Source: Amphiscolops sp. MND2022 (taxonomy: Eukaryota). From it: a stretch of 60,000 nt of DNA. Positions 1,100-45,061 of this stretch are shown in pieces (the first letter of the stretch is position 1; each line of letters starts with the position of its first letter). Made by a program: the position numbers and the translations under genes. The stretch is from the NCBI GenBank assembly GCA_964187785.1, contig OZ076409.1, positions 23,562,001 through 23,622,000 of the forward strand, given 5' to 3'. Below the pieces are notes generated by a model. The model did no database searches and was not told the origin of the DNA. It worked only from the letters and a program-made list of their open reading frames with translations.

Positions 1100-4000
1100 A
1101 TGGATTCTCGTCCATCTGTTTCTGTTGGTTTTGACCCAGGAGCTCTGAGTGGTCATGAGACCCAGTTCTTATTTTCGGAAGGAGATGTTCGTCGGAGTGA
1201 CGCAGATGATATTCATGTTTCAGCACGTGGTAAGTTTATCATTCCTTGATCCATTAAGCTTTCGTGAGATATACTGACAACAGATAGGCCTTTTCTGTAT
1301 TTGTATTTCCACAGCTTAGATTTTCTTGACGCGTCGATGTTGGAATGATCTTTTTGGGTGCTGAAGCTACTCCTCCTTCCCCTACTGCCGATGAGCGTGA
1401 GCCACTTCACTCGTCTACTCCTATCGCAGGTTCCTCTTCAGTTCCCGTCCACGTTCCCGTGACGTCTTCCATTGCATTTACTCCCCCGGTTGTTTCTACT
1501 GCAGACTCAGCTTCAACTCTGGGAGGATTTGACGTCCCTCTTACGCAGTCCATTGTCGGGCCTTCTTCTAGGGACGCAGATAAAACTGCGAGTTTCTGCT
1601 CACGTAGGTGAGACAGTATGCCCCCTCCCCAATGAGGAAACGCTACAGGTAGCAGAGACAACACCATCCTGTGGTGCCGCGGGTTCATCGCCGTCCCCTG
1701 GGTTCCTTGGTGGATTCGAGAAAGCACGGGCGGAGTCGTCCAAGAAACGGGCATCGCAGAAAGGTAATGGATTACTGCTGAGTTATATAGTGTATACTTT
1801 GGAGTTTGCTAATCCCATTTTCTATATTGGGTTTTTGATTATGTATTTAGTGCCGAGAGAATTGTCTGCGGTGTTGCCTTTTAAGAGGAGACGACAAGTG
1901 CGCGTTTCAACCGCCGATTTGCAGGTCTCGCAGTTTACTGTCAGCGGTAATGTTGAATTCTTTGTTTTTAAATTCGTTGTGGCGGTTGTTGCAGTTGTTG
2001 GCTGTATTCATTTTGTAGACAGTAACAATGATGATTTGGGAGAAGTGTCGGTGGAGCGTGCTCTGCAAGAGGTGTCAGGAGTGAGCGACATGGACACGAC
2101 TGGACTTGCCCATCCCTCAATTGGTCCGTTTCTGGCAAGTACGTGTGGTCTTTCTGTTACTTGGTATTGTTGTAGTACGCTTGGTATTCGCCACATTGTC
2201 GAGGTAATTCTGCATTGTTTTGTGTTTGTTTCTAGGGATGCAAGATTTAGTTTCCCGCATGGAGACAAGTTTCGATGCCGCAGCGTCACGTGCCCCTCCT
2301 GTCAAGAAGTACAGCAGTCGCCACCGCTTGCGAAAAGATATGGTGGGAGATCATCCGGTGTACAGTCTTTTCGTCAGTGGATCGAGCAGTGGATCTTCGT
2401 CCCTCTTCCACTGTATGATCTGTCGGCGAGACGTATCAATGCAGTCTCGGGGTTCGAGGGAATTTGTCCGCCATTTCGGATCCGATAAGCATTGGTTTCG
2501 AGATGTAGCCTACCGAGTGCAGAAAGACTTGCCCGTCTACAGTCGTTTAATGGAGCCTCTTGAGTTGTCGTCCGATGAGCGTGCAAAGTATCTGAGCCAG
2601 GATCCCGTCGAGAAGGATGAGGGTTTCAGTTTTCCAGAGGATCTGCTACCAGCCTGTACCCGAGTAGACTCCACTGTTCCCCTTCTCACTATGGTGAATT
2701 GCATCGCCGAGCTGTGCCGCTGTGGGGGTAGTTATACCCTCTTACGCAAACTTTGGGGCAACTTTCGTGCAACTTTGGGGCCAGAAGATCCGCTCTACAG
2801 TCTGTGTTGGAATCGCTCTGAGACTCTGGTTAGTATGTTCCTTTCTCCTTCTAATCTTGGTGTTATCTTCTTTCCCTTTTCCCTTTTTTGGTCGGAGTAT
2901 TGGCGCGTATTATGATGTTTTTCCGTAAGTGAGTCTGTGCCTCTGTTTAGTCGTTAATCTGTCGTGCCTTGTACGCACGAGTCTTGAGATCTGTGGTGTC
3001 GCGAGTGAGTGCTTTCAACTGCTATTGTGTCAGTTTCGAGGATCGCGATGATGGACAATATTGTTTTGTCCGAACTTGGGAGGGCAACAGCCTACTGGAA
3101 ATCTGCGTGAATGTTGAACCTTTGGGGCAGCGTATTCCACAAAGTGAGTTGTCGTCACTATCGCGGGTCGTGACGAGTTTGCCCTCAGGACTTATGCCTG
3201 TCAGTATCCGCGGGGTTAGCCAACCAGTGTTGCGGGTCCTCAGTGAGGAGCGGAGCGATGGTTGCCGCTTCGTTTACGCCCGGGAGTTCTCAGTTGACGT
3301 CTTTCTTCATTGTTACCGAGTGGCTCACCAGGAAATCTTTGGGCTTTTGGAGACAACTACGATGGTTGACTACCTCATGTTGCGCTTGCGTGGGGCTCTT
3401 CAGGAGCCTTGGATGATCGACCTGCCAAACTTGCGTCGTTGCGTCACTGCTGGACGGGTGTCTTTCGACGAATTACGAGGAGTCATCAGTGAACTGATCT
3501 CGATCTGGGACACCGTGCGAGAGTACGTCCGCTATACGGGACCTCGCCACATTAAAATCGGTTCGGACAGGGTGAGTTCCATCTTTTATATGTGATTGGT
3601 CAGTTTGTCCTTGGTAGGTTGGTTAGGTCGTCGTCATCATTCCAGTATTCATGGCTTTGTGTGTGTTTTAGATGCGTGGCACAGATCCTCTGGTGTATTC
3701 GGAGACCACGAATAAACTTCGTCTAGGAATGCTTCTCCACGTACTCGATTTGTGTGAGTTGTTCTTTTACTTGTCAGTAGGTTATTGCTGTTTTCCATCA
3801 CGTTTTGATTGTAGTATTGGCGTGGGTTTCTGTGTTGTTGTCGTTTCGTTGACGGAGAGTGACCTGGGATGTATATGGTTGATATCGTTTGTATTTAGAT
3901 GACTGCACCTTCAAGAAGCAGAAGACTGGCCGTGTGGATTATGCTTTCCATGCATACAATGAAGTGTGCCAGTTCATATACTGTTTGCTTTCTCGAAGCC

Positions 4001-5214
4001 GTGTTGTGTCTGGCCTGCCTCAGATGGACGACTGGGAGGCATATATGGATCCCTCAAAGTTGAAAGATCTGGAGAAGATTTCAAGTGAGGACTTTCTGAA
4101 GAGCTACGAGTTCGGGACAGAGTTGCATCGGGCCAATACTGGAGAATTGTGCGAGTTCCGAAATCGTTGTCGAGAATTTGTGGACCACTTAGTTGACGTC
4201 ATCCTTGCGCAGCAAGTTGTCTCTTCGGATTTTTTCCAAGGTCTCTATTGTTTCTGCCCCGAGCTGCTTCTGGAAGGGGATGATCGCCACGTGTTCCAGC
4301 TATTTTCCCGTTTGTTGCGCGTACTTGAGAGATGTGGGGTCATTCAAAGTGGAGTTGCGCGCACTAGCCTAGAAGAGTTCACTACCTTTGTCGTTGATGC
4401 CCGAGCCCGACACCGTGATTCAGGTAGAAGCGCAGAAGAGATCTCTGATATTGTCTCTCATTTGTTGGGCGATTACAGTTTCATGTCCCGAAGGGATTTG
4501 GCTCGAGTTTTGAAAATATGCAGTCTAGTTGTTGCTCGTCCTCAAATTAGCATGCCCAAGATTGAAATCGATTTGGATCGCTGTGCCGTTCCTGCTTCCG
4601 TCATTATGTCGTCGTTGCGGGGTGTACAGAGTCTTGTGCTGTCCGTAAATTATAAGCAAGGGGCGTTTTTCACACAGGGGACTATGGAGAGTGTCCGCGA
4701 CGCCATCGCTAGTAGTCGCCAGTTTATGTCAAGTGCCTCCTTTGATCCTTGGGAGAGTCTGTGTTGTGGTCGCTCATCGTTTGTCACAAAATATTCGTCT
4801 GCTTTTGACGACTACCTTGCGCGTAAGAAGAAGGAGGCAGATGAACAATTGTACAACGCCAATCGTGAGCCTCGTCACGTCCGCTTTTCGGAGTCTGGTG
4901 GGTCACGGACTTCAAGTGTGTGTGGTTCCCCGCGATCTGTTGTTGAGCCAGTTGTGTCATGTACGGCTACTTCGCCTGGGGCTATTGCTGCTAGTAGTTC
5001 TAAAACGTCGGGACGTCGTCCAATTGTGGAAGACTCTTCATTGGCTGCAATCTTGGGGCGAAAGAAAGGTGTCAGGAGTGCTGCTGCTGAGAGTCAGGTG
5101 GGTGCTGCGAAGAAAAGTACGGATGAGGGCCCTTCCAAGGATGCGAAAAAGGATCCTAAACTCGGGTCGAAGTCTTCTGGAGAGAAATCGTCTGTCAAGT
5201 CGAAGAGTGTATAA
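1100..5214 (+). CDS. Spliced antisense accessory gene of element A; zinc finger plus inactive hAT-transposase-like protein (~1,100 aa)
   Basis: GT-AG exons 1100-1229, ~1320-1763, 1851-1946, 2019-2138, 2236-2828, 2951-3571, 3672-3753, 3899-5214. Phases are consistent from ~1590 onward; exon 2 appears frameshifted. Zinc finger CMICRRDVSMQSRGSREFVRHFGSDKH. Colinear similarity to the gene at 26467-30651. Confidence 0.75.
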
Positions 5215-5447: not shown

Positions 5448-8400
5448 TTAGTGAGTCGTAGTCATAGCGTCAAGTCTTCTGAAGTCAGGATTAGCGTTGG
5501 GTTTGGGATTAGGTCGTAAATTGTATTTCGCTATTTTCCTTGGATTGTATCCGACTGCTGTAGGCGGTGATCTTGGGGGAATGGGTGGACTTTCAATGGG
5601 TGGGGGGCAACGTATATATGGATTATCCCCTACGTCTGTAGTAAGATTCGAAAAATCCGGAGATGGCGGCGCTGCGTCGTTCATAGTTTCAGGCTGATTG
5701 TTCGGTACTTGTTGCGTCGGCGTTTCGTCCTGCGTGTTCGCTACTTTTTGCGTTACCGCTTGTTGGTTATTGTTTCCATTCTCTCGCGTCTCGTGCTCGT
5801 CGATCTGTTTTCCGAAATCCATTTCCCACGAGACTGCGTACCATTCATTGTGTGACACTTTGACATCTGGATCGGGAAGGTAATTGTCGGCTCGTACTGT
5901 GACGTCAGGCAAGCGTTGTTCTGGCACGTAAGGTCGTATGCGAATTCTGTGTAGTGTTTGTGTATATCTTGTGCCAATTTTTCGCATTGTGTAGTTGTTG
6001 TTTGAGAGCACTTTGATTACTACATACGGTCCTGTCCAGATGCAATCTTGAAACGCAAACTTTGTCGCTTGATTGTCGGCTTTCGGGTTGAGTATATAGC
6101 AGTAGTCGTTAATTTTCAATGGAGCTGCGGTCGCTTTGCGGTCGTAGTATTTTTTGTATTTGAGGTAAGATAGCATGATGTTGTCTTTGGTCGTCGCTCT
6201 CACTTCGTCGATTTGTTTTTGGAGTTGTTCTGCTATATCCGAGTGGGGGGTGGTTTTCCACTTTGGCTTGATGCCTAGTTTCAAATCAAGAACGTTGTAA
6301 GGTATACGTCCGTGAAATACTGTAGATGGTTCGCAGCCCAGAGTTTCATGGTATGTTGTATTGTAATTCATCACTGCGATTTGGACGTATTTGTGTATTT
6401 GTGCCACATTGAGCGTCGTTCGCCCGTTGATATTTTTAGAGCAGTTTTGATTGAAGCGTGCGTTCTCTCCAAAATTCCGATTGTTTGTGCATGTTTTGTA
6501 GACGCGTGGCTGATTTGAATCTCGAGTATTTGGGCTATTTCTGTGACGACTTCTGATCGAAATTGTGAGCCCTTGTCTGATAGGATTAGTGTTGGCAAGT
6601 ATGCATGTCTTGTCATAACGTCGACAATGCATCGTCCGATTGTTTTCGCTGTGACATTCTGCGTTGGATATGCAAATAGGTAACGTGAAAATACGTCGAT
6701 CATCGTAACGATGTTCTGGTATCCTGCAGAGCTTGGCAAATTTGGTAGTATGTCAATTTCAAGAATGTCCTCCGGACCAAGGACGTGTTCCGTATTGTTG
6801 ATCATTTTCGGTCTGATTTGGTTGTTGTTGATTCGTTTGTATTTGATGCAGTCTTCGCATTGCATTACCCACTGTCTGATCCTCTTTGCTAATCCGGGGT
6901 AGTAATACTTTGATCGGCATTCTTGGATCATTTTTGTGATTCCTGGGTGCTTTCCCATTTGTCCATGAATTGCTTTCAAGAGTTTTGTGATTAAATGTTC
7001 AGGGATTAAAATTTGATGGTGAGTGACTTGGCCACATTCCCCGTAGTATTTGCGCATTAGTATTCCATCTTTCACTATTAGTCTGTTCTCGTGGAGTAGG
7101 AGACGTTTAGCTGTCGGATCGGTCTGTAGAAGGTGTTTGTCGTATTCTTCACATATCAGTTTCTTTTTGATTGCTTTGAAAACCAAATTCGAGTCTTGTT
7201 CGACTCTAATGCGTGCGTCTTCTTTTATTGCCCCAAAAGTATAAGATGCTTTATTTATTGGAATTGGGGAGGTTTCTTTGATGGCTAGTTTAATTTTGGG
7301 CGTCCCCTCGTCGCGCGCATTTTGTCTAGCTTGTTCCTTCTGCAATAGGATTTCTTCTTCTGTTTCAATTGTTTCATTAGGAAGGAAGAAAAGTTGTTCC
7401 TCATCCGCGACGTCCGTTGATTGAAGATTCACTTGAATTGGCCTGATTGTAATATCCTCTCTGATTTTTAGTTCAACTCTTTCTTTGGGATTGAGATCAA
7501 TTCTTGAGAGGAAATCGGCCGCGGTGTTTTGCGTACCCGCGGCGTGCATTATGTGGAAGTTGAATTGTAATACATAATCACATGCATTCCACAGAGTGGG
7601 CGGGATCGCTTTTGTTTGAAAAAAACGCGTTACTGATCTGTTGTCGGTCATCACGAGAGTTGGTAGGGTTGTTTCCCATAGAATATGGCTGTATTCGAGG
7701 AAGGCATGATAGATTGCTAGGAATTCCTTGCAATAGATTGACATTTTGATTTGGGCCGGGGAAAACACTTTTGATCCAAATGCGACTGGTGCAAATGTCT
7801 TCTTTTTTGAATTGAGTTTTTTGTCATTGTCCTCTTCAATCATTAATGCGTAGCCGGAGACTCGAAAGCTGGCATCCGTCATTAGGACGTATTGACGTCC
7901 TGTGATTGGTTGTTTGAGAGCCAATCCGCAGGCTTGCGACAGCGCTGCGTTGATCGCCTTGTAATGGTCGAGTAGTTCTTCAGTGATTTTAATTTGTTTG
8001 TCTGCTTTCAGCAGCTCATAGAATCCGAGTAATTTTTCAGATAATCGCGGGATGTAGTTGCGATAAAAATTGACAAAGCCGATGTATCTTTGTACTTGTT
8101 TCTTGGATTTCGGAAATCGTACATTTGCTAGGAATTTTTGAATTTTATGATCCTGCGGGGCGATTCCTTGTGGTGTGATCGTTCTTCCAAGGAATTCGAC
8201 TTCGGTTACTCCGAAATGGCATTTTTCGATGGTTAATTTGAGTCCCGCTCTTCTGATACATTCAAAAACTGCTCGAATGTTGCGTATCAGTTGCGCCACA
8301 GAATTGGCCGCTATTCCGATGTCGTCCACGTACTGCGCGCATTGATCGGCTTTGATTACTTTATCCAAGTATTCTCGCATGAAGCTTGAAAATGCCGACA

Positions 8401-10387
8401 GGGCTCTGCTCAGTCCTTGTGCTAGGCGTTTGTAGGCGAACGTTCTGCTTGCAAAGTTGAAAGCTAGCATTTCGATTGATCGTTGGTCTGCCATCTGTAG
8501 GCAATGATATGCCTGTGAGCAGTCTAATTTGCAAAACAACTTTTTCCCAGCTAGGTGTTGGGCTGCATCTGACAGGGTGCTGACTGGGTGGTTATTGTTG
8601 ATGTAATCATCTGAGATTAGTGCGTTTATTTTTCGTAGGTCGACGAGTAGTCGTAACTTGCCATTCGGTTTGCGTTGTGCGAAGATTGGGCTTGCATATT
8701 TTGAGAATGGTAGGGTCGTTATTATGCCGTACCTATGCATTAGTGCTAATTCGACTGTTAGATCTTCTTTCAGGTTGATTGGTACCGGCAAGCTTTGTGT
8801 GTAAATTGGACGCTCGTCTTTCGGAGTTAGTTTGACTTTGAAGCTATTGTTGATTCCAATGTCAAGGCGATGGCGGGCAAAGATATCGTTGTATTCGACT
8901 ATTGTTTGCTCGAGTTGCTTCCTGTCGTTGCCTTCAATTTGAGAGCCTTCCCATTGAAACATGTCGAGGAATTTTTGTCTTGAATCCTGGTCTTTGGTTG
9001 GGTCTAATTCTTCTCTCTGTTTTAGTTCACGGATTTCTTTCAGGATCCGTCGTTGGATTGGCGTATGTTCTTCTTCGTTTCCCGGATTCTCAGGTGTGGG
9101 GAACCAGAAATTTTCATCACCTTGTTCAGTTTCGTTGGCTTTCATGAGTTCATTGACGTACATGTGGGTGTCATCAGGATCTTCTAGCAATTTGAGTGCG
9201 GCGGCGTCTATTGGACGTATTTGTTTCGTGTCCTCGGGTCTGAAGATTTGTAGTTCAGCCAGTTTTGTGTGATTCTTTATTGTATGAGGGAAATCCGTTA
9301 AGTTGGCGATTCGGATGTTGAGCCTTTTATTGTGGGCTGTCGCTAGTGCTGGTGCAACAATGATTGTTGCTGCTTCATCAAATTGTGGTAGTGGTTGTAC
9401 TGCTCCAGTGACGTCATGCATGTTTGTGGTTATTACTATTGCGTTCACTGTTGTTGTTTGTTGGGGCGGTAGGGTTTGATTTCCTTCTGCCATTATTTGG
9501 AGCGGTTTCGGGTTGCATTTTTTCATCTCGTCCGTCATGGCTAGCGTCATTTCGACGTGCGGGAAATTGATGGTTCCGTTGGCAGTGTCAATTACTGCTT
9601 GGTGATTTCTCATGAAGTTCAATCCTATGATAGGGAATGACGTTTTCGATAGGATGACGAAGGTATCCGTGAAGGTATATGTTCCAATATTGAACTGGAT
9701 GTCCGCTGTGGCCATTGGTTGCTCTAGTTGTGCGTTTGCGCATTCGATCTTGAAGGGGGGTTGAGGGTATTCTTTTATGACACAACTACCACTGTTCATT
9801 TTGATTGCGTTGTAGTCTGACCAGGACATGGCATTGATGAACGCGCCTGAGTCGACGAGTCCATATATTGTTATCTCGCCGAATTCGAGTGGCAAGTACA
9901 GCATTCTCCTTCTATTCTTGAGGACTATGGTGGAATGGAGGGGTATGTATGTTTCCCCATCCTTTTCGGCTACGTACTCCTTGATTGAGTTGAGTGATGT
10001 GGGAAAATCGTCTGTGGACAGAAATGCTGTGGAGGAGTTGTGGTTATCTCCTTCAATCTGTTGTGACGATGGGCGGTCGTCGGGGGCGTTTTCGGTTTGT
10101 TCTGTTTGGGTTACGGTGGACTGTGTTGTATTGGTGAGGGGTGGCTGGATGAGAAGATTTGGGTGTTGTTTGTGGTCGTCTCCATGATCCTCATCTTGTG
10201 TCGGTTCCTTTTCGGTTTGTATGAGGGGTCTTCGTATGGAAGCGAGTGCCTGACGTCTCAGCCAGTCCTCTGTTGGAGTTCCATCGCATTCTATAGTTGT
10301 TTCGTTGGTGTATGTAGTAGGGGGATCATTTGGTGAATACGCCCTCGCGTCTACTGTTCCCTCGAAGCGCAGGCGCGGCGTATTTAG
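5448..10387 (-). pseudogene. pol: Gypsy pol (protease, RT, RNase H, integrase with GPY/F), one frameshift
   Basis: LVDSGA; YVDD; TDAS; H..H..CEDC; EID/SDKG/ILER; WTGPY. The frame is open from the slippery site (10387) to the Met at 9904. An 8-bp tandem duplication GTATTTGT at 6387-6402 shifts the frame into ORF 5448-6632. Confidence 0.95.
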
Positions 10388-10393
10388 TTTTTT
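10336..10393 (-). promoter_or_regulatory. -1 ribosomal frameshift signal (A AAA AAC plus stem-loop)
   Basis: gag ends TCA AAA AAC TAA. The -1 frame stays open for 161 codons into pol. Downstream hairpin AATACGCC...GGCGTATT with an inner stem. Confidence 0.85.
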
Positions 10394-11820
10394 GATTCAA
10401 TGACGGAGTTAGCTGTCGTTGGTTGGACGGGAACGTCCCTTTTTGATTCCGGGTTATTGTAACGCTTAGGTCGTGGATCGTTGGCAGAGTTGGCTCCGTT
10501 CCAACAATCTTCCGTTTTGTGAGGTTTGCCGCATGTGTCGCATTTAAGCGATTTGCCTGCACTAGAGTTGGTTTGACCATTGTTCTTCCTGATCTGCATC
10601 CATTTATCTCTCTTCATTTTCCTACATTCCGCTTTGTAGTGTCCAAATTTGTTGCAGTAGAAGCATTATCCCTTTTTGACATTTTGCGTCGTGCTGTCGA
10701 CTTGTTTGGATTCAGTTTTTGTTGGGGCCGGTTCTACTTTATTTAGCGGTACCAGTGTTACTTCATCTGGCGCCTCAAGGCCGTTAAGCCTCATTTCTCT
10801 TTCCAAGTGTAGCACAATGTCATTATATGGCTTGTCTTCGAGATACGCCCTGTTTAGTATCTTTTTTACATGATCTGGCATTTTTGCGTATATTGCCTTG
10901 TCAATGAATTGTTGGGCTTCAGATCCGAAGGCTTCTTTGGCCGTTTTTTGAAGTACGTCTAGAAATTCATGGAGTTTCTGGTTCGAGGGGTCAAATCTGA
11001 GCGCATCCCATTCGCATCTAGCTTTAGCCGTAGACAGGTAGTCCCCGAAACGTCGTTTGAATATCGTCATTATTTCGTCAAGGGAATCTTTTTTCGTGTC
11101 TTCTATATTGCAAAACGCCTGGAGGGCGTCTCCTCTGAGTAGCGAGTGGAAATAGTTAATTTTCTGTATTTCCGTGAGATGGGGATACATTTTTATGTTG
11201 TTGCGGAAAAGATCTTCGAATAATTCGAATTTTTCCGATTTCCCGTCGAACGTTGGGGGAGATGCCGTTAGTGCCTTTGGCATGGGCAGCGTTGGGCTGT
11301 CACCTTTTTCCGATGTAAACAGGGTTCTTGCCACAACTGGACGTTCTTTTGACGTTGGCTGACTTTGGGACCGGGCCTTCGTTCTTTTTGGCTGGTTAGT
11401 GGAGTCGGTTAAAACTCCTGTCACCATGTTACGACATGCTATCGAGTCGTTTTGAGTTGAACTTATTCTCACTGACTTTGTAGGGGTATGAAAACTTCTA
11501 GTCTCCTCTTCTACTTCTTCCTCAGTATTCTCCCTGATGCTTCCCCTTGTTTCAGGTTTTAGTAGTTTCAACATTTCTCTCTGGGATTCGGCAAGAAGAG
11601 TCTTAATTTCTGATGTTATTTTTTCTTTCAAAGATGCTCTCAAACTCTCTAAGAAGCTATTTTCAATTCGAGGAGATTTTGGTCTAGAAGGACCCGACAC
11701 ACCTACGTCTTGGTTTGGACAACAGGGATTTTCTACCACTATTGGTGAAACAAAGCCTTCACTTACGTCTCTGTCGCTTTGTTGCTCATTCCTTCTTTTC
11801 TGGCTTCTAGTTGTAGACAT
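10384..11820 (-). pseudogene. gag: Gypsy gag (starts inside LTR; in-frame TAA at 10666-10668)
   Basis: MSTTRSQKRR start; PTFDGKSEKFELFEDLF capsid-like region; CFYCNKFGHYKAEC and CDTCGKPHKTEDC knuckles continue in frame after the TAA. Confidence 0.9.
11411..11426 (-). other. Primer-binding site, tRNA-Leu-like (TGGTGACAGGAGT)
   Basis: Directly follows the LTR terminal CA. Resembles the TGGTGTCAGGAGT complement of a tRNA-Leu 3' end; tRNA identity is tentative. Confidence 0.75.
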
Positions 11821-12457
11821 TTTGAAGAAAAGCTTTATCTTGAAGAATTGATTTTCCAAAGATAATTTTCAACAAAGTTAGCTGAGATTAGAGTTTAGCG
11901 AAATTGAGAATTCAACTGAATTAAACAATTGCATCAGACTGAGTCCCTGAGTCAATGAAAATCATCCTATATATACCCTCCTAGCATCATTTGATCACGA
12001 TTAAAATCCTAATTTTCCTCGAACAATTAGTCATTTCCTGTATTTTCGATGAAAAAATCATTTTGTTCCCAATTTTACGTCGGTAACTCGTCAATTTTTA
12101 AGACACGACAATTTCAATCTAGCATTAGTCATCAACCACGATCATATCATTTCAGCTCGGCGTCCTTTGCTTTCCTCCCAAGCAGGAAGTAGATATTACT
12201 TCAGTCTGTCAAACCGGAAATGATTCCCTGTTTTACTGCTTTGGTTCGTAGGAAAATGACGTGGAGATGACGCTAACGTGAACAACTAATACCTGATTTT
12301 GAATTTTTACTTGAAGGAAATGCTATGACTAATGTTTTCAGCTTTGGAATTTCCAATGATGCTAGGAAAAGTAAAGACAAAGCTATGGAATTAGCTTCAA
12401 TTTTTGAGTTGAATTCCCAATTCAGATAAATAGTAATTAAACCAAATTAACGTAACA
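11427..12457 (-). repeat. 5' LTR of element A (1,031 bp)
   Basis: Perfect 7-bp terminal inverted repeat TGTTACG...CGTAACA; adjacent PBS; TATA-like TATATA ~11970 upstream of the gag ATG. Confidence 0.85.
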
Positions 12458-17185: not shown

Positions 17186-17647
17186 ATTTAAGATAAAATG
17201 GTTATTTGAGCTTTAAAGGTCCTCATTGTGAACATTTTAAGTATTGTATGATGTTTTTTGAACCCTCCAGAAAAACAACCCTTTAACATAATTGAACGAC
17301 TTCCTCTCGTTGAGCCTAGAGCGTAGCACCGACGTCGACGTTTCTGTCTTGGTACAAGTGCCTAAACATGGAACTTCTTGTCCAGTTTCGAGAACTGTCG
17401 AAAATTATTGAAACTTGAAAAAAAAGACAAATTAGCTTCTGATTAGTTAAAATTTGAGTTGCATCAGAAGCATTTCGAAAAAGTTTTTTTTAGCATTTTC
17501 TTATATTCCACTCTGTTTTGAATGTCGGTATCTTTAGGGTTTTGATACCGTTTCTGCAACAGTAAAAAATTAGTAATGAATTTTTAAAACTGTTTGTATC
17601 GATCTGTATTAGTCTTTCCGGGAATAAATTAATTAAAAGAAACTAAG

Positions 17648-18729
17648 TGTCATGCCCGCCAAGCATGAAGGAATTAAACGAACTCTAAAACATTAATTTA
17701 TACATCAAACTCCCTAAAATACAGATCATCATGAAAATACATTGCAGTAATTTATTCCCTGAACAATACAGTTGAGAGTATAACGACTGGAACTAACAGT
17801 CATCAATACTAAATTCATTCATATTATTGTGCATCGTTTAGAAACCAAGACTGAAACAATCAGTCATCAGCTATCGTGATAGTTTGTGATTTAATCATTC
17901 TTCATCCATTTTTTATATTACATGTAAAGTATTACCAGAATATTCAATCATTCATAACAACTACATTTCGTTCATTCATATTAGCAATTTGTACAATGCC
18001 TTTTAGTAATTATCCTCCAAACGATAATTGAATCAGTCACCATGATGATAAGAACACGCGGTAGTAAAGCCTCAGTTTAAGAGGCAATTGAGACAATTGC
18101 GTGCTAAAATGACTGGTGCTTGCGGTCATACTGGATCAAACATGAATAATTAAACGCCGATTATCACCCGTCACGACTGTAGCCACCAGTCGTCAAGTGC
18201 AATTAAACAGCAATTAGTAAATCGAATGTCATTGGCTAAAAGGAAAGGTGCTAACACACCTTTATAGTTACACAATCGGGTAAAACCGAACTCACTCACA
18301 AGTTGTAACCATTGATATAACCAGTTGCCTACTACCTTGCTTACGAGTTGTCAATCCTTATTTTAACATTAAAACATTTCGATTCAACTTAAACTTCCAG
18401 ACTTTTCATGGTAATTACCAGATCTCAAAGTAGTCAAAATAGACAAGTAGAAACTGAAAATATGGATAGATCAAGCGATAACGAAAGTGAAGCCAGTTTC
18501 CCTGAATATTTATCCAGAGACCAAATGGTAGACCTTGACTCTGACGACGTTTTAACTAGACGTCAAAACAGTTACAGATATAACATTGACCAGCGATTTA
18601 ATGAGATAAATAGACAAATCGGAGACCTTACTAATATAGTCCTTACACTGACCAATCAGTTTGCCTCCGTTAATGGAGAAGGGAACAGACTGAAACCAGC
18701 AACTACAAGTACTGACGGTCGTTTCGACA
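17648..18729 (+). repeat. 5' LTR of element B (1,082 bp)
   Basis: TGTC...GACA termini; direct repeat of 31467-32577 with a 29-bp indel and roughly 16 substitutions counted by eye. Confidence 0.97.
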
Positions 18730-18745
18730 TAGTGACAGGAGTCTT
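18730..18745 (+). other. Primer-binding site (TAGTGACAGGAGT; TGG>TAG variant)
   Basis: Adjacent to the LTR end; matches the element A PBS except at position 2. Confidence 0.7.
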
Positions 18746-19930
18746 GAACCCACGACCATCAGGATCTCGAACAACACCACCCAACGGGACACCAAGGAGT
18801 GACGAAAGTATTCCGCAGATAGCAGATGTGATGACGGAAATCCACCATCTCCGCAGTACAATGGGGGAAACCTTGACCCATCCAAAAATCCTGCAGACCC
18901 AAGTACCTCTATTCAAGGGAAATCGAGACAAATACAATGAACTCGAGCATTTATTGCTCAACCACTTACGACCACATGCCCACAAACTAACCGAAGAACA
19001 AAAACTCAACTACTTTCAGAGTCTTCTCAGAGATGACGCAATTGAGTTTTGGCAAACCCTAACAATCACAACAGAAACGACACTGAGAGATATACTGACG
19101 GCATTCAAAAAAGAATACGCAAAGGAAGAACTCTCAGAAGTCTCGAAGTTCAAATTCGACCAGCTACGATACGATCCGGCCACTGAGTCATTCAGTACCT
19201 TCCTCGCCAATTACAAAAAGATTGCCAAACAAGCCTACGGCGAAAATGCACAGGAAATTGTCCAGACCTTCCTATTTGCCAAATTACCGATCCAGCTCCA
19301 AAACGAACTGACAATTGCAGGAAAACACAATGCCAGCATTGAAGACATCAAAACATTCGTCCAGAGAAGATGTCAATATGCCCAGTAACTACCAAACCAA
19401 CAACTCCTCCAACCGTTCAACCAAGCTATCCAGACACAAGAAGTCCCAAACAAGCCAGTTGTTCAGAAGAGGAACGAAAACAAACGACCAACAATCAAAA
19501 AGAAATTCGATGGCAACTGCAGATACTGCGCAATTTACGGACACAAATGGGCTGAGTGCCGAAAACGACTGCGTGACGAAGCAGCGGGCAACAACAACTC
19601 ACAACCTCAGAAAAAGCCCGAACAGCAAAATAACAACGCAGAAACACAACCAAAATACAATGCCAAACTGGTCTGCCAAATTTGCGGATATACAGGTCAC
19701 TCCGCAAAAGACTGCCGTTACAGAATACCCCGAACCTCCGCCTACGGAAGCGTGCCATACAATAGGCAAACCACAAATGAAAACAGGGACTTCCGACGCG
19801 ACTTCCGAAGAGCACACAACTACCCTTACCCAGCAAATGAAATGAACGAACTTGCACCAGGGGACCAACAACAGCAAACCAGTGATGACTACTACCAACA
19901 GGAATTCACCGAAGGATCATCCAGCCAGCC

Positions 19931-19937
19931 AAAAAAC
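19931..19937 (+). promoter_or_regulatory. -1 frameshift slippery heptamer A AAA AAC
   Basis: CCA AAA AAC TTC TGA at the gag end; the protease ORF (19979-20578) is in the -1 frame. Confidence 0.75.
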
Positions 19938-22900
19938 TTCTGAAGCCACGTCATCCGACTGACTAATACAATAACAAAGTGCGCAACATGAACAACTACT
20001 ACTACACAAAGAACTACAAAAACCGGGCAACTGATCTTCGGCAGGATCAGAAACCTAAGACTACAACTACCCACGAAACAACCAATGACAAAATGAACCC
20101 TCCCTTCGAACCAACGGACGTGAACTTACAAACGACAGAAGACAAACAGCACTCTAACTCGACTACAACGACTGACTGTACAAGGAAAACAATGAACCGA
20201 AAGAAAGACGTGGCGATCCAGGTGTTAACAGCAACACTCCAATTAAACAAAAAGGACAAGATGTTGTACGTCCCATTGCAATTCCGAGAATACGAGAACC
20301 ACGGACTCCTCGACACAGGAGCAATAAGAAGTGCAATGTCAGAAGACGAACTCAGACGAATCCTGTCTGCACACCCAGCCGCACTTCTCGAAGAGTACCC
20401 AGCACCGGACTTCAAAGTCCAAATCGCAAACGGAAGCATCGTCCCGGTCCGGAAACAGGTACTACTTCGCTTCTTCATCGGAGGTAAAGTATTCGAGGAA
20501 ACCTTCATGATTCTTTCAACCATGGGTAACATCTTGATCGGAATGTCATTTTTCAAAAAAGTATTCAGTGACACTTGACCTTGCCAACAACGTAGTCAAG
20601 TTCCCGGATATTACCCTGCAACTGAAACCAGAACGAGGACGATACAAAATCCAGATGATCGAATTACGAACGACACAGAAAACAGTCATACAACCGGACC
20701 ACCAAATCATTGTCCCCGTCCTAGCAGAAAGGGACCTCGGGACAATCCAGGGCACAGTGGAAACCTTTCCTGCCTTTGAAAGGAAGACACAATTACTGGT
20801 GTCCCCCGCCCTAACGCAAATCACTGAGAAGAAAAGCCATGTCCAGTTCACCAACCTCACTTGCCATACAATTACCCTCAACCCGAACACGACAGTGGCC
20901 ACCTTCAAAATAATGACTCCCAATCAAGCAAAAATTCTACAACCAATGTCAAACGAACAATTGACACTAATAACCAAATACCCGGACGAAGCCAACAACG
21001 TACTGAACCGTCTGTTTCAGGAACCCGGCACTGAAACCAACCGCAGATGGTACCCAACCCCGGAGACATGTGACGACCCGTCCAAGCTGAACCGCATTGA
21101 AAGGCGGATATATAACGAAATCACTCAACTCCGTGAAGAAGAGAAACTGGACCCAACAGCAGACGACCAACAACGCAAGGAGTTCCTTGCTAACTTCAAA
21201 TGGGAGAACTCAATCCTGAATGAACACGAACAACAACAAATTGAGAACCTCCTTGTGAAGTACAACAATGTATTCGCCAGACACCGCCTCGACATAGGCA
21301 TCAATACTGACTTCAAAATCAAACTCACTCCGAAGCATGATGAACCAGTCTACGCGCAGAGCTTACCTACACCCACCAACCTCAAAGATGACCTGCTCGT
21401 CGAACTAGCGCTGATGCAAGAGTACGGGATCATCACGACGTTGCCGTACAGCAAGTATTCCTCACCAATATTTGCCCAGCGCAAACCCAATGGGAAACTT
21501 CGCATTCTTGTAGACCTGCGCAGAATCAACCACCTCTTGAAAAATGATTACAACCAACATAATCATCCAGTCACCACCATCGCCGACGCCGCCCAGCACA
21601 TGGCAGGGAAGAAGGACTTCTGCAAGCTGGACTGCTCGCAGGCGTACCACTGTTTGCAGATGGCGGATGAACAATCCATACAACTCTTGGCATTTAATTT
21701 TGGAAGTCGAACCTTTGCTTATCTACGACTGGCACAAGGACTCAACCGATCCCTATCAGCATTCAACAGCACGGTGCGAGAATACGTTGATGCACTGGTG
21801 AAAGCGGATAAATGTGCCCAATATGTCGACGACATTGGGATTGCTGCCCACACTGTAGATGAGCTACTGTCAAACATTGAAGCTGTGTTCCAACAAATCC
21901 AAAAAGCAGGACTGAAATTGTCGATGTCAAAATGTGCGTTTGGTCACCCACAGATCGACTTCCTCGGGAGAAGCATCACATCAAAGGGTGTCGCCCTACT
22001 CGAAGACAAGATCGACGACTTCCTCAAGAAGATCAAATTGCCCACATCAATCAAATCCCTCCAAAGGTACATCGGGTTTGTCCAGTTCTACAGGCAGTAC
22101 ATACCACGCCTAGCAGAAAAACTCACCCCACTGTACAAACTACTCCAAAAAGACGTCAAATTCCAGTTGACCCAGCCGCACAAGGACATCATCTTCGAGA
22201 TTAATGAAAATCTTGCCAAAGCTGCGAAACTTTCGCTGCGTTTTCCGTTACCCGATAAACAGCTTGTTATAATGTGCGACGCCAGCGAGCATGCAGCAGG
22301 ATATGTCCTCCTGATAGAAGACTATACCGAAACAAACGATGGACCACTGAAAACGTACGCCCCAGTATCATTTGGATCCCAACGATTCACGGAGGGCCAA
22401 ATGTCCCTAACAATGTACGCAAAGGAATTCCTGGCGATGCATTTCGCATTCGATGAATTCGCACACATACTCTGGGGTGTCAAGAAACCAACAATAGTAA
22501 TGACGGACAATAAAGCACTGACCCGATTTTTTCAGTTTAAACGGATTCCCCCGAAGCTATGGAATTACTGCGATCAGACGCTCCAATTCGAATTCGTACC
22601 TGCCCACGTTCCTGGAACTGAGAACCCTGCTGCAGACTACCTGTCTCGTCTTGACATACGACCAGAGGAAAGAATACACCTCAAACTCAACGACGAGATA
22701 CCAGTCTTCCACGTCGAGATCGACCTGGCATCGAGAACACCCAAGCAGGACGAAGAAGAAGAAGAATGCATACCTGATGACCAACACACTACCACCACCA
22801 AACAAAATGAAGCCATCAACGCCATCCTGGACCAGGTCCCCATGTGCAGCAACGAATCGAGTGGACAGTTTCTCGAGAGGATAGAAACCATCTGTCATCA

Positions 22901-24737
22901 AATCACACCCATCATCACAGGGCAACATGACGATATGACGTTCACCAGATTCAGACGAAAGCTTCATGACAACGTGGTAAACCAGGTATGCCCCAATGGG
23001 GAGTATCAAATCATCCAGGATCAAGTCGTAAACCTTGACATCCAACGCATGATTAGAATTTTGAACCAAAAGAAAACCCTTTCTAATCATGTGAACTTTG
23101 AAAGTCAGTTTTTCCAAAAACTAGTTAAAAACAAGAAAAGACTTGAAGTAGTGAACAACGTTTTGTACAGGAATTTTTTTGATGGTACAGGTAAAATCAA
23201 GTGTAAACAAAATGTCACTCCCCCTGAAACCATTCGGAAAATCATTCAATCCCTGCACGATCACCCTCTGCAAGGTCACCCTGGCTGTAACAAAATGCTC
23301 CAGGAACTGCGTAAAAGGTACTACTCACCAAACCTTTCTGAACTGGTACTGCAATACGTCTCGAACTGCCAGGACTGTATCCGCGCAAAACCAATCCGAA
23401 AAGCTGCAATCACACCACCACTTCAACAAATATACGACCCCTGCAACGGACCAGAAGACATACTAGAAATCGATTTAGTCGGTGAACTCCCACCTTCCAA
23501 CGGATTCACACACATCCTCACTGCATGCGACTACTTTTCTAGGTACCTCTTCGCAATACCAATCCGTAAACCGGACACAAAGTCGGTCGTAGAAGCACTC
23601 ATGCAAATCTTCACGCAGCACTCGTATGTACCCAAAACAATCTTAACTGACAAGGGAACGACATTCACATCTCAACTACTCAACGCCCTGATGGAGTCTG
23701 CCGGTATAAAAATCGAACACTCCTCTGTAAAGCACGCACAAACGATCGGGATGGTTGAACGTTCACATCAAACACTGAAACAAATTCTCAAAATCAACAT
23801 CTCAGCTGATTCACCACAATGGCACAAATACATAAACATGGCCGTAATGGCCCATAACACAACCTACCACCAGGCTATCCGATGCACACCCACTGAAGTT
23901 TTCCACGGACGTGTTCCGTTCAATGCCCTTGACGTCAAATTTGGCCAGCCATTAACCGAACAACGTAACACCACTGACGTCACTGGAATACTAGATAACA
24001 TGAACAAAAAATTCCAACAAACACATGACAACATAATCGAAGCCTTTCACAAATACAAGAATTACTACGACCGAAAAGCGCAAACTTCACCTCTGAAAGT
24101 AAACGATTTCACCTTTCTGCTAAACAAAAGACTGTCTCAGCAATCTGAAAAAATTCCTTTCAAGGAATTCAAGTGGGAAGGCCCATACAAAGTGGTCAAA
24201 GTCTTGTCAAATTCAAATTACATCATACGTAAGATTGGCACTCTTCGCACCCAATGCGTTCACAGAATGAGGCTTCGCCCATTCACGCCAAACGCACCAA
24301 TCGAAGACATTCAAGACAATGCATCACAATATTTCGAAGATCCTGACGCCCTCAACGAGCAGGAGTTATTTGACAATAACCTACATGATCATGTCCATGA
24401 ACAGCCACAACAAGTAATACCTGAACAATCAAACTTCGAAGAGTTACACGCAGACCATGGAATGATCTACTACGAACGGCAAAACATAGAACCTGATCAA
24501 AACATCTCCATACCTGAAAGCCAGGCTGAAACACAAGAACCACAACCGGATAATGCTAGCATGAACAATTCTGAACACCAAACAAATGATCGCCCTCCAG
24601 CGCCATCACGACACACCATGTCTCGATACGGGCTCAGACACAACCCAAAACCTACCACGTACCCTGATTTCTTAATGCACGAATTACATGGTACGCCTTC
24701 ACTGCAACAGTTACTTCTGAAAAACAGAAACCTGTAA
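19937..24737 (+). pseudogene. pol: Gypsy pol (PR, RT, RNase H, integrase, GPY/F)
   Basis: LLDTGA; YVDD; CDAS; HDHPLQGH..CQDC; EID/TDKG/MVER; WEGPY. TAA at 19964; one extra A in the run at 20555-20560 separates ORFs 19979-20578 and 20568-24737. Confidence 0.95.
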
Positions 24738-26466: not shown

Positions 26467-29400
26467 CTAATACTCTGTAGAACGGCTGGAGCCGCCCTCG
26501 TTACTGCTTTCTTCGAGTGAAAAAGCCCGCCTGCTGACTTGTACAATTTCAGTCTCAAAGGTAGCCAGAGTGCGCTTCCCTTTCTTGTCCGGCTTCCCAC
26601 CGGTCCTCTGTCCGTGATTGCCCCCTGACGTCCTACTGACTGCTTTGCGCTTCGGAGCTGACTCACTCGGACCTGCTGACGACACTACGACCTCGGATTG
26701 CAATTTCGGCGCTTGAGCTGCTGAACGCCTTGATTTGACAGGACTCCGACGGGGAGCAGTTGGACTCGACTCCATTGTCCGCAACTGATTACAAACAGCA
26801 GACACATAATCGTCAATGACAGGGCAAGTAGGTAGTCCACCAGTCGTCTCCAGTACTGTGACACAGCGCCCAAGCGATTCATCAACCCCCCTCTTAACCA
26901 ATTGGTCCCAGGTGATAGCTCTGCCTTCATCGGTAAACCGCGAAACCTGCATGTCTGTAGTGCTGCAGTGTCTAACAAATCCAATCATCGAGCGTCGAGA
27001 ATGCCCGCCGAAACCACTCGACATCCAGCTTCGAATAATGTTCAAACTTGACAGCATGATACAGTCATCGAGGGCTGTGTCTCCTACATCCTGAAAATTA
27101 GCAGCATACGAATCATGGAGCATTCCCACAAAAAGAATCTCCACAATGCCCCGGAATTCTTGGCACCGGTCCCACGAAGGATATGACAGCCACAAAGACA
27201 TGGCATCGTCAATAACTGGCACCATCGAAGCATTGGACTCCCATCGATGCTTGAAGTAGTTGACTACCTCGCGATACTGCTGCAAGATGATGGCACCTTG
27301 ATCTCCTCTGCAAAGATCTCCAAAGCTGAGCACAGAAAGTGTACCCACAAGGATGTCTGTCAGCCGATCCATTGACACCGATTGTATAGCATAAGGATCC
27401 AGCGGCAACAAGCTGAGGTGCTTAACCCACCCTTGGTCATAATCGCCAATGCACGACTCGCACACAGTCCTGAGGAAATTCTGCACTTCTTTATAAAAGA
27501 AAGGCTTCTGGCTGACCACGTCGAAGCGGAAGTACTGGCCGAACAGCACTTGAAATCGGGCCTTGTCAACAGGCTTACTCTCGCCCAGTCGCAACTTCAA
27601 CACGGCGAGGACTTCAAAATCAGGTGGTAGCGATGAGGGTTCGACGACCAGAGACAATAACTCCCGAAGGAAAGCAGCCAGCTCCCGCTCGAACCACAAG
27701 TTCCGGTCTCGCCCAGCAGAACACAAGCGAGGACACTTTGCAACAACTGAAACACACAGGTGAATCACAACCAAAATGTTGAAAAACTACACACCCTAGC
27801 AACTCAGACGTCGATAACACCCAAATCCACAATTACAACAAAACTAGTACCGACACACCCGTACACAAGAAACACTCAAAACTCTTATACTGACCTGTCT
27901 CTGCCAGAAAATTCAAAACTGCAAATCGCGGCCTCGACAAAGCATCGTTGAAGACTTGAGTTTCCATACTGGCTATACTCCGCGTTTCGGACACAGTATT
28001 TGACCGGTGAACACCGAAGTAGGCACCGAGGTCGTCCCATCGCTCCACAAGTTCGGTGCACAGTGCCGACAACTCCTGGAAGCGCGCAGCACCACCACGG
28101 ACGAACTAAAACAAAATTAGCACCGAGTTAGAACGAAGCAGACCACGACCACACATTACCACACATACTCACACCAGTCCCCGAAAAAAAAAGAAAAAAA
28201 AATGCGCTAACAAACTTAAAATCAATTACCTCTCGAAGCCTTGGCATATTGTCAAATGACGAACCACCGATGACGGCGGCTAAACGGAACCGGAAATACT
28301 CCAACACGCAGAAGGGTTCCAGTCCACTCAACTCTCGCAGAAACGTGCGCCGCAGCAAATCCTTCAGCCAGTCCACATCGAGACGACGGGTAACCAAAGG
28401 TATGGCTGGGTGCGCGATGCTAGCTAAAGCACGCCCAAGACGCAGATTCTCTCCCACACTCACAGCACACAGACCCGCATGAGACTCCACACAGGCCAGA
28501 ACAGAGACAACGATCTTGAGTAGTGAGCGTTCCCACTCACCACCACCAGGAATAGCAGCTAGCACAACCATCTTGACTGTCAGAGCGTCAAAAATGTGGC
28601 AATCCACCCGCTTCAACGACCCATCAGTGCGGACGTGCAGACCAAACCGCGCCCCAGCAGAGAGTAGATCGCTCAGTTTCTCCATGACAAATGGATACAG
28701 GCCGTACAACACAAGACTCTACAACAAACATACAACAGTGACACTTCTCAGCAAGTACTGCCAACGAAAACAGTAAGCAACTGCAAACACGAACTAGCAG
28801 ACAAGAACCAACATTCACGAACAAAACATGTATTACCTGACATTTCGGGTATGATAGCACCCTCTCACTGAAAACCAGCTCGCCCCGCATGCTACTGGAC
28901 CACACTTCCATGGACCGCACAACGCTCGAAAAGTCCCTCAGTTCAACAAAGTTATTGATGAAGCAGCATAGCCAGAGGTATGAAGAACTGGACTCCGACA
29001 ACTCGGGTTTCGAACCAGCTGCCTCCTCTTCTAATTCAACCGCAATCCGCTCTTCAACAGTCAGCTTCACCTCTGACTCCAGAATGACAGGTGGCTCTGA
29101 CACTCTGGCTGCCCGAATTCTCCGATCCTCGTCCAATGACACGGGCCTACAGGACTTTTCCAATAGAGGCCTATTAGACATGATGCGGAAGCGCTGCTCA
29201 AGACGAGTGTGCTCTCGCCCTTTCCAATGATCCCACAAGTTGTGTAGCCCACGTCCGGCAATGCTTAAATCAACGTGGCACAGACGACACCTTGCGAACC
29301 CGTCCACCACACGTTTGTTTCGGGGGAAACCAACGAAGGTCCCCACGACCCCAGAAACGAAGAATGAGGGTTTCAACGTTTTGATAGCACGTTTCCGTCC

Positions 29401-30651
29401 TGCTAACACACAACACAAATCACATAGCACCACTGTCCAGCCAAAACCTTCCAAAAACAAAAAAAACGTGTTTGTCCTTAATCAGTAGTAGTACGTTATA
29501 TACACCTCTTATTTCTTTGTTTACCACCTAAAACTAAAACCCCTCACGTGATCTTTTGAGAGTTCTTACCAGGCTTTGATGTGGAGGCAACAGCGGACGA
29601 AGTCCCCCCAGAAGGAACGACGCTCTTTTCTCCAAACTCAGACGGCACATCAGATTCCACTGCCGCACGACGATCGTCCACACCAGAGATGCTCCCAGCT
29701 ACGGAGCGTGGTAGAGAAGAAGTCTCACCACCACGGGGAACGAGAGGAGCTTGACCCAGTTCTCGCAACGCTTCCTTCATTTTGTCCAGGAATTCCTCGA
29801 CAGCGAGGGCACCCACTGTCCCTAGCCGGCCCAAACTAGACTCGATTGCAGCCTTCACCCACTGCTGAATTTCCCGTTCTACACGTTGAAACAATTCAGT
29901 GAACTGCCCCACAATGACATCAGCTCGAACATTGGCATCTGCAAAGTAACCCTTAGTTCATAGCACCTACTTTGAACTCAACGACTGAAGGCATCTATCA
30001 CCGCCTGGTTAGAGAACAGCAACCGTATACTGCATGCATTGGTATTGAACAACAAAAGAACCAAAAGACCCCCCCAGCAGATAACTTAACTTCACAGTAA
30101 CCGTGAATTCACCTACCAAGTTGCGATGTCAGAAAGGCATCCAGTCGACGAAGGATGGGCGCCGCATCCGTCTCAGAACCCTCAGCAGTTCCAGTGGCTA
30201 TCGAAGCACGAAAGCGACGTAAATAACTGACCACGTCGGACATGTTGACATCAGCTACAAACACGAGAACACCCTATTTAAAATGCTACGCCTGACACTC
30301 CCTAACATTACGGGACTCAAACTTGAAAGTATGCAAACTTGAAGGAAAGACTTAACTCTCCCTTACGCTTTAGACATACCACTGATAGTAGTACAATATA
30401 CGAAGTGAGCACTTACCAAATTCCTGGGAGAGAACGACATCCAATAAATCGCTTAAACCAGCGATATTAGCAGAAGATACCCGAGCCGCAAACTGACAGC
30501 AGTAACTAGTCTCCAGCAATAATCCTGATAACTCCAGATCGCCTCCACTTCCACCTAGCTGAGCCCCCTCTCCGGTCATCTGATTCTCCACTTCAGCGAC
30601 TAACTCAGCTAATCCGGGACCAAAGGACTGACCTGCCTCATCATCAGACAT
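26467..30651 (-). CDS. Spliced antisense accessory gene of element B; zinc finger plus inactive hAT-transposase-like protein (1,095 aa model)
   Basis: Seven GT-AG exons 30651-30417, 30254-30117, 29938-29570, 29402-28837, 28718-28230, 28105-27895, 27746-26467 total 3,288 nt, all phases compatible with no stops. Zinc finger CRLCHVDLSIAGRGLHNLWDHWKGREH. Confidence 0.8.
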
Positions 30652-31453: not shown

Positions 31454-31466
31454 AAAAAGGGGGGAA
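31454..31466 (+). other. Polypurine tract
   Basis: AAAAAGGGGGGAA directly before the TG of the 3' LTR. Confidence 0.9.
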
Positions 31467-32577
31467 TGTCATGCCCGCGAAGCATGAAGGAATTAAACGA
31501 ACTCTAAAACATTAATTTATACATCAAACTCCCTAAAATACAGATCATCATGAAAATACATTGCAGTAATTTATTCCCCGAACAATACAGTACTCAATAC
31601 AATTAACAATACAATCAAGTTGAGAGTATAACGACTGGAACTAACAGTCATCAATACTAAATTCATTCATATTATTGTGCATCGTTTAGAAACCAAGACT
31701 GAAACAATCAGTCATCAGCTATCGTGATAGTTTGTGATTTAACAATTCTTCATCCATTTTTTATATTACATGTAAAGTATTACCAGAATATTCAATCATT
31801 CATAACAACTACATTTCGTTCATTCATATTATCAATTTGTACAATGCCTTTTAGTAATTATCCTCCAAACGATAATTGAATCAGTCACCATGATGATAAG
31901 AACACGCGGTAGTAAAGCCTCAGTTTAAGAGGCAATTGAGACAATTGCGTGCTAAAATGACTGGTGCTTGCGGTCATACTGGATCAAACATGAATAATTA
32001 AACGCCGATTATCACCCGTCACGACTGTAGCCACCAGTCGTCAAGTGCAATTAAACAGCAATTAGTAAATCGAATGTCATTGGCTAAAAGGAAAGGTGCT
32101 AACACACCTTTATAGTTACACAATCGGGTAAAACCGAACTCACTCACAAGTTATAACCATTGATATAACCAGTTGCCTACTACCTTGCTTACGAGTTGTC
32201 AATCCTTATTTTAACATTAAAACATTTCAATTCAACTTAAACTTCCAGACTTTTCATGGTAATTACCAGATCTCAAAGTAGTCAAAATAGACAAGTAGAA
32301 ACTGAAAATATGGATAGATCAAGCGATAACGAAAGTGAAGCCAGTTTCCCTGAACTTTTATCCAGAGACCAAATGGTAGACCTTGACTGTGACGACGTTT
32401 TAACTAGACGTCAAAACAGTAACAGTTATAACATTGACCAGCGATTTAATGAGATAAATAGACAAATCGGAGACCTTACCAATAAAGTCCTTACACTGAC
32501 CAATCAGTTTGCCTCCGTTCATGGAGAAGGGAACAGACTGAACCCAGCAACTACAAGTACTGACGGTCGTTTCGACA
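31467..32577 (+). repeat. 3' LTR of element B (1,111 bp), containing the Gag N-terminal ORF 32256-32591
   Basis: Direct repeat of 17648-18729; followed by TSD CTAAG. Confidence 0.97.
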
Positions 32578-33179
32578 CTAAGTTTTATTGAGAGCATCCA
32601 GATTTCGACAGCTTTTGACAATGTTTTAACTATCAAAAAGTTTAGGCGGCAAGCTATCTCGAATTTTGATCAAAAATACAGTGGTATTTTTTGTTTTGGA
32701 ATCGAATCAAACTTAAAAATAGTCAATAAACATTTTAATTTGGGGAATTTGGACGATTAGGGAATTTGGGAAATTGGGGAATTTGAAAGATTTCTGACTT
32801 TTTAAAAGTTTTCAGTTTACTGGTTAATAGTTTTCAACTTTTTTCGGTATAGACGTTGCATTTTATGATATTGTTCTGATTGAAAATTAATTGCCAAATC
32901 TTTTCTTCAAATAGAAATAAAAATGGTTTAGGGGGCAAAGTATGACCCTTTGGTAAATGCAGCAACATCTCATTTGTTTGTAGTCTTTTGTGCCATGGAG
33001 TCCTAGTATTTTCTCCAAAATGGCCTGATAATGTTATCGAAAAAACCTGGTTATAAGCATTTTTGTTGTTAGTTCATCTTAGCTTTGATTTTTTTCACGA
33101 TATATTGTGGAAAAATCAAGTCTAAAATGAACTTACAGCGAAAATGTTTCTCAACGTGATCTCACCTACATTTCTGTTG

Positions 33180-33362
33180 GAATTTTCGGAAAAGTTGAAA
33201 AATTGAGAAAAAGTTGCATAGAATCTAATAGCTGTCTAGAGAATTTTCGGAAAAGTTGAAAAATTGAGAAAAAGTTGCATAGAATGTAATAGCTGTCTAG
33301 AGAATTTTCGGAAAAGTTGAAAAAGTGAGAAAAAGTTGCATAGAAGTAATAGCTGTCTAGAG
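33180..33362. repeat. 61-bp tandem repeat, 3 copies
   Basis: GAATTTTCGGAAAAGTTGAAAAATTGAGAAAAAGTTGCATAGAAT.TAATAGCTGTCTAGA x3. Confidence 0.95.
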
Positions 33363-33369
33363 ATCAACA

Positions 33370-45058: not shown

Positions 45059-45061
45059 CAC

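Follow-up and report, generated by a model that had tools for sequence, protein, structure and literature searches.

A gag gene that starts inside the 5' LTR in a clade of Ty3/gypsy-type retrotransposons

In which way can the end of an LTR, the primer binding site (PBS) and the start of a Gag protein be written into one and the same stretch of DNA? This question is raised by two LTR retrotransposons, designated A and B, in the 60-kb sequence analysed here (the window). Element B has a length of 14.9 kb, is encoded on the forward strand and carries the gag-in-LTR arrangement under study. Its 5' LTR of 1082 bp (17648..18729) has the ends TGTC..GACA and is 96% identical to the 3' LTR of 1111 bp (31467..32577). 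The target site duplication (TSD) CTAAG is present at both outer flanks (17643..17647 and 32578..32582), and a polypurine tract (31454..31466) precedes position 31467. The gag ATG is located at 18408, which is 322 nt (107 codons and one nucleotide) ahead of the LTR end, and the frame of this LTR-coded Gag N-terminus (18408..18729) is open from the LTR through the Leu-tRNA-like PBS (18730..18741), with D-I-VTGVL as translation of the junction. The PBS of this copy lies in the gag frame and differs by one base from that of the family. The remainder of gag (18730..19943) encodes a linker, the capsid and two zinc knuckles and is interrupted by an in-frame stop at 19386-19388; it is followed by pol (19967..24737) with protease, reverse transcriptase (RT), RNase H and integrase, in two frames in this copy. 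The 3' LTR repeats the frame with an ATG at 32256, 107 open codons and a stop four codons into the flanking DNA.

Element A is located on the reverse strand and has a single LTR within the window. This 5' LTR (1031 bp, 11427..12457) has a 7-bp terminal inverted repeat, by which alone its 5' edge at 12457 was set. With the gag ATG at 11820, the LTR-coded part (11427..11820) comprises 394 nt, i.e., 131 codons and one nucleotide ahead of the LTR end at 11427, where the PBS (11415..11426) abuts the LTR's CA end in the gag frame and the junction is translated as N-M-VTGVL. The remaining gag frame extends to its first stop (10666..11426), which results in 384 aa in total vs. 478 in relatives, and pol (5448..10396) is present in two frames in this copy. 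The window copies of A and B are both decayed. The sequence-only reading had claimed that the att site and the PBS are themselves coding, and the frame that is open across LTR end and PBS in both elements confirms this.

The arrangement recurs in relatives. A third lineage is represented on the DNA level by the metagenome locus L001, which carries one LTR only, with an ATG at 9356 and the junction CA/TGGTGACAGGAG at 9743/9744, so that 129 codons and one nucleotide are LTR-coded. In protein searches, which are biased toward copies with open frames, the best 120 of 3217 A-type matches included 112 with the junction motif, 106 with residues upstream of it and 93 with at least 90 such residues; the respective numbers for the best 120 of 154 B-type matches were 99, 92 and 75. 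A profile search yielded 2566 matches, the best 150 of which contributed more distant lineages, and a tree was established from 28 Gag cores hand-picked for diversity and length. In 22 of these 28 Gags, distributed over both deep branches, (N/D/H)-M-V-T-G follows after 100-223 residues, and the other six show motif variants or late starts. The cores of A and B share 33% identity. Within the branches, N-termini could be aligned to those of A, B or L001 with z values of 9-38 in nine of 13 pairs, their length changing in frame, and a start of the type M-x(1-2)-T-R-S/K is kept across many lineages. The proposal that the upstream frame is kept across copies and lineages, for which its loss would have been decisive, thus holds among these matches and hand-picked Gags, and a real and clade-wide gag-in-LTR arrangement is well supported at sequence level. 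No relatives were found by protein search in viral contigs and genome contigs; the junction 16-mer had five viral matches, all unrelated, and tblastn with nine Gags gave no match.

The residue in front of the junction methionine is N, D, H or Y, the residues of the NAC codons, so the protein word (N/D/H)-M-V-T-G-V corresponds to NAC A/TG GTG ACA GGA GT, the slash marking the LTR end. In L001 (9741-9790) and in the proteins P0435, P0471, P0539 and P0437 the att/PBS junction recurs as an in-frame tandem repeat; the duplication in L001 has a period of 42 nt and a degenerate second copy, and P0471 contains three copies. Such in-frame duplications are a possible route for shifting the LTR end and the length of Gag.

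The sequence-only reading had further pointed to an in-frame ATG at the junction of A as a possible second start for a shorter Gag. This ATG is present, but it is not special to A: B-type relatives read D-M at the junction in 82 of 92 cases, and the Ile is peculiar to the B copy of the window. Since an LTR end in CA and a PBS starting with TGG together make an ATG, conservation of this codon is no evidence of its use, and a start at this position remained without support, as the gag AUG and the junction are separated by one to four additional AUGs (three in A, four in B and one in L001). Nevertheless, two forms of Gag could be postulated, of which the long one would begin at the LTR ATG and the short one at the junction ATG via an internal promoter, splicing or leaky scanning, with the short form perhaps comparable to Ty1 p22. 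The junction methionine is found in 102 of 106 A-type and 84 of 92 B-type matches with upstream sequence (best-120 lists), the short protein would, according to the structure models, retain the whole capsid domain, and the restrictive short Gag of Ty1, described in the available part of PMC4551931 as made from a subgenomic RNA, provides a precedent. However, att site and PBS already fix the ATG, which makes a coding reason unneeded, and ribosomes that scan would need to skip the gag AUG in addition to the intervening ones. Moreover, no TATA-like match was found inside the coded part of the LTR of A or B, and an annealed primer tRNA would presumably cover the junction codon. We therefore consider two Gag forms improbable, although of the alternatives this one survives best.

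For the LTR-coded part, AlphaFold models of A and B (mean pLDDT 62-63) predict a disordered N-terminus with one helix (residues 54-86 in A, 47-88 in B), a junction inside a disordered stretch and a helical capsid domain thereafter. The predicted helix of B contains a four-heptad repeat (residues 60-85; 18585..18662) with hydrophobic residues at eight of eight heptad positions, which none of 500 shuffles equalled. P0216 has seven of eight at an N-terminal identity of only 16%, and the pattern is found in most B-type lineages (seven of ten, at most 6 of 500 shuffles being as good). A-type N-termini have no canonical heptads (4/8; 308 of 500 shuffles as good), and relatedness of A-type and B-type N-termini was not detected (z 2.1, 0.3 and 0.8). 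A hydrophobic-moment test, in which at most one of 100 shuffles was as good in six of 22 N-termini (five shuffles as good for B, 11 for A), was not used as support. A protein-level proxy for selection based on shared vs. private substitutions gave p = 0.002 for regions picked by visual inspection and p = 0.20 with the AlphaFold helix as region; the conservativeness of shared changes gave p = 0.09. As the proxy is weak, selection is argued mainly from the kept frame, the start motif and the helix. According to these models the LTR-coded part would be a disordered region that evolves fast and contains a single amphipathic helix, forming coiled-coil heptads in the B-type, and it probably aids Gag assembly.

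The same data bear on the idea that Gag starts at the junction ATG or later, in which case the frame upstream would be a relic that is never translated or a side effect of the LTR being rich in A. This would agree with the faster evolution of the upstream part, which is 33% identical between A and P0100 vs. 87% for the core, with the six of 120 A-type and seven of 120 B-type matches called from the junction (best 120 of 3217 and of 154, respectively) and with the lack of significance of the selection proxy for independently chosen regions. Yet an open frame of the length of the LTR-coded part appeared in only seven (B) and two (A) of 20000 base shuffles, the frame shows codon-position base bias, and M-x(1-2)-T-R-S/K start, in-frame length changes and helix are all kept across lineages, in addition to the heptad repeat; a late start is thus very unlikely.

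How precisely the LTR end is located can be read from copies that have only the LTR. With the 131 LTR-coded residues of A as query, 709 short proteins were obtained from the protein collection and the best 120 were taken. In this set 109 ORFs track the family to residue 131 and continue with unrelated sequence, and the other 11 go on into MVTG. In 108 of the 109 ORFs the first residue outside the family can be encoded by a codon that begins with A, compared with 47 of 108 at the next residue. Divergence after residue 131 together with the A-starting codon is what is expected of 3' or solo LTRs ending in ACA, which fixes the boundary of the A family to the base. These LTR-only ORFs run into flanking DNA with a median tail of 26 residues. 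Among the short members of the P0216 and P0142 clusters, none proved to be an LTR-only peptide. For the lineages known only from proteins, the LTR end is deduced from the motif, with direct support in the 195-residue lineage from one peptide, P0620, which departs from the family directly after D. The junction 15-mer occurs twice in the window vs. 0.12 expected occurrences. Together with the LTR repeats and the TSD of B, the 109 LTR-only ORFs bear out the original placement of the gag ATG 107 (B) and 131 (A) codons deep in the LTR.

Between the two LTRs of B, 9 of 322 nt differ in the coded part (18408-18729 vs. 32256-32577) and 7 of 760 nt upstream of it, in addition to a 29-nt indel (p = 0.027). 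At several of the differing sites the 3' LTR matches the relative P0121. The differences change seven residues and are silent in one case, but having arisen after insertion they are uninformative on selection. The excess would fit an LTR drawn too long, with its true end ahead of the ATG and the repeat lengthened through gene conversion or a faulty assembly, a reading to which we give next to no credence and which is contradicted by the TSD of B directly after 32577, the CA end with the adjacent PBS and the 109 LTR-only ORFs of the A family, which lose similarity at the same base.

The elements were assigned to a class by their domains and termini. Pfam matches place protease, RT, RNase H and integrase of A and B in the Ty3/gypsy order, and the RT-RNase H part matches foamy virus Pol (2e-33) and Ty3 (3e-21). 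Element B has direct LTRs, TG..CA ends, a short TSD, a PBS and a polypurine tract. Membership in Ty1/copia was rejected, as integrase does not precede RT. Gag-like and zinc-knuckle Pfam matches, including Retrotrans_gag, were below the cut-off, while Retrotrans_gag reaches 0.93 in the Atlas for the capsid part. The best fold matches of this part are the capsids of dArc1 and PNMA2 (weak, E 0.02), so that Gag is recognized by a weakly matched capsid fold and CCHC knuckles. A coiled coil is found at the N-terminus of Arc-like Gags; A and B resemble Arc and PNMA2 in the ranking of the capsid and differ from them in that their own predicted helix is encoded within the LTR. An env gene was found in neither element. 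A and B are thus Ty3/gypsy-type LTR retrotransposons of a clade with the gag start inside the 5' LTR. The host would be a eukaryote, probably an animal.

Ten of the 12 bases of the PBS agree with a Leu-tRNA end in the tRNA table of PMC13524379, and this table contains no exact 10-mer match. No tRNA gene was found in the 60-kb window. In P0342, one of 15 cluster members listed, the LTR-coded part and MVTGV are followed by GFEPT...LSLAP and a stop. Judging from the layout of tRNAs, this tail presumably corresponds to the reverse complement of an entire Leu(CAA) tRNA including its intron, and P0342 reads like an LTR fused either to a complete primer copy or to a tRNA gene.

The gag frame of B terminates on the slippery-type run AAAAAAC (19930-19943) and that of L001 on TTTAAAC (10970-10981), each with pol just after it in another frame. 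These runs suggest that -1 frameshifting may connect gag and pol.

In B a TATA-like box and an initiator-like hexamer (18261..18297) are predicted 147 and 116 nt before the ATG (chance 0.035), and in A a TATA box and an initiator-like hexamer (11937..11975, reverse strand) 155 and 122 nt before it (chance 0.021). In each of these LTRs this is the only such pair in the upstream part, and it precedes the ATG. A transcription start downstream of the LTR ATG, which would have refuted the sequence-only reading, is not what these predicted promoters indicate. L001 has TATAAATA 197 nt before the ATG, and an initiator match is absent. The predicted leaders contain 0 (B), 1 (A) and 0 (L001) ATGs vs. 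2.2, 2.3 and 3.1 expected; the one in A is located 6 nt past the initiator, where several relatives read Leu. Poly(A)-like hexamers are found 40 (B), 19 (A) and 61 nt (L001) before the ATG, the one in B being ATTAAA (18368..18373), a candidate poly(A) signal, and several more lie within the coded parts. RNA folding of junctions and leaders did not exceed that of shuffles (z -0.6, -1.7, +1.1 and -1.4), so a PBS stem-loop is not claimed.

From these motifs we propose the following arrangement. Transcription would start about 115-165 nt upstream of the LTR ATG, and a poly(A) signal just upstream of the ATG would result in a short R. The U5 would then comprise about 320-400 nt in A and B and up to about 600 nt in relatives, nearly all of it coding, and translation from the LTR ATG would yield one full-length Gag. 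The integrase end and the PBS would be placed in the disordered linker ahead of the capsid, which may tolerate the five residues dictated by the DNA. Since both LTRs receive a copy of U5, the start of Gag is also found, as an orphan frame running into the flanking DNA, in 3' and solo LTRs. We assign to this reading, i.e., a short R, a U5 made up almost entirely of Gag code, att site and PBS in a disordered linker and Gag from the LTR ATG, a probability of roughly 80%, judged on sequence features.

Of the known systems, Ty1 of S. cerevisiae (Ty1/copia) is closest in layout. According to the available part of PMC5454406, its GAG likewise begins within the 5' LTR and includes the PBS as coding sequence, with a 5' UTR of 53 nt, a PBS at RNA nt 95-104 within GAG and PBS changes that may be silent in GAG. 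The earlier statement that gag of Ty1 starts only a few codons inside U5 agrees with the about 13 codons ahead of the PBS in this source, compared with 107-131 in A and B and about 195-220 at most in relatives. Unlike Ty1, A and B have a predicted helical segment in this part, the Ty3/gypsy gene order, a Leu-like PBS and LTRs of 1.0-1.1 kb. With the gag ATG inside the 5' LTR and a frame that continues through the PBS, A and B thus show the Ty1 layout, about tenfold longer and in Ty3/gypsy elements.

Insect errantiviruses share with A and B the Ty3/gypsy affiliation, a PBS at the LTR end and the occurrence of Leu primers (available part of PMC13524379). In contrast to A and B, all 40 LTRs called among the 46 rows of one dipteran part of that source (part 14 of 34) are separated by over 500 nt from the start of gag downstream, taken as in the paper's methods; the annelid rows in its available part are unusable as a baseline, as their coordinates misfit a gag start at 3000. 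The Tor elements of Oikopleura are likewise divergent animal Ty3/gypsy elements with extra genes, and their transcription start was mapped in the 5' LTR (PMC4402516), although the available text contains no placement of the Tor gag start in the LTR. A narrow phrase search, with subscription papers and repeat databases mostly outside its range, returned no Ty3/gypsy description of a gag or other ORF starting in or overlapping an LTR, and the available parts of PMC3095310, PMC6112278, PMC2774666, PMC6238403 and PMC9911081 contain nothing on such an arrangement.

Further features of the elements and of the window were observed. In A, B and L001 several kb between pol and the 3' LTR contain antisense ORFs (window 2208-5214 on the forward and 26467-29481 on the reverse strand; L001 2530-5762 on the reverse strand). 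A BED-finger-like antisense ORF (zf-BED E = 0.007) is homologous in all three, and two further ones are common to A and L001 with 27-32% identity. The antisense ORFs resemble the exons of a spliced accessory gene, conserved and in antisense orientation, which is possibly of greater interest than the gag-in-LTR finding itself. Towards the end of the 3' region, A (10-711, reverse strand) and L001 (7297-8031, forward strand) each have a sense ORF of about 235-245 codons that is acidic and rich in Ser and Pro; the ORF of A had no Pfam match, and A vs. L001 gave no blastp match. L001 (1-11621) has the order pol end, antisense ORFs, one LTR, PBS, gag and pol start. This order is circularly permuted, as would result from an assembly collapse or from a circle with one LTR. 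Outside the elements the window contains three 61-nt tandem copies and a MITE-like 91-nt inverted repeat (99% complementary, 102 nt apart) at 33180-33650, and a tandem array at 35200-45100 with units of about 1.7 kb and 233-nt subrepeats (91-99% identical). The region 47000-60000 contains a 3.6-kb duplicated block with a 24-nt minisatellite in open frames, a protease-like ORF at 47627-48568 and a separate RT ORF at 58844-59686.

LTRs are usually taken as non-coding; here about one third of the LTR encodes about one quarter of Gag. Since this part is coding, an annotation that treats the LTR and the internal part separately cuts Gag short and wrongly places its start at the PBS. Conversely, the (N/D/H)-M-V-T-G word makes LTR ends readable from protein data alone. 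Solo and 3' LTRs with an open Gag start into host DNA are a possible source of chimeric proteins or a possible brake on copy number. As a speculation that we regard as rather doubtful, hundreds of 3' and solo LTRs might act as expression units, each with a promoter, an ATG-poor leader and 107-195 codons including an oligomerising helix. Orphan N-terminal Gag peptides might then poison or tune capsid assembly according to LTR copy number, coding first exons might be donated to host genes, and in-frame junction duplications as in L001 might shift the LTR boundary together with the length of Gag. For the clade as a whole, the first 100-200 residues of Gag would be written in the LTR, and the signals for integration and priming would double as protein code, with att end, PBS and protein sharing one sequence over deep divergence and the overlap placed in a disordered linker.
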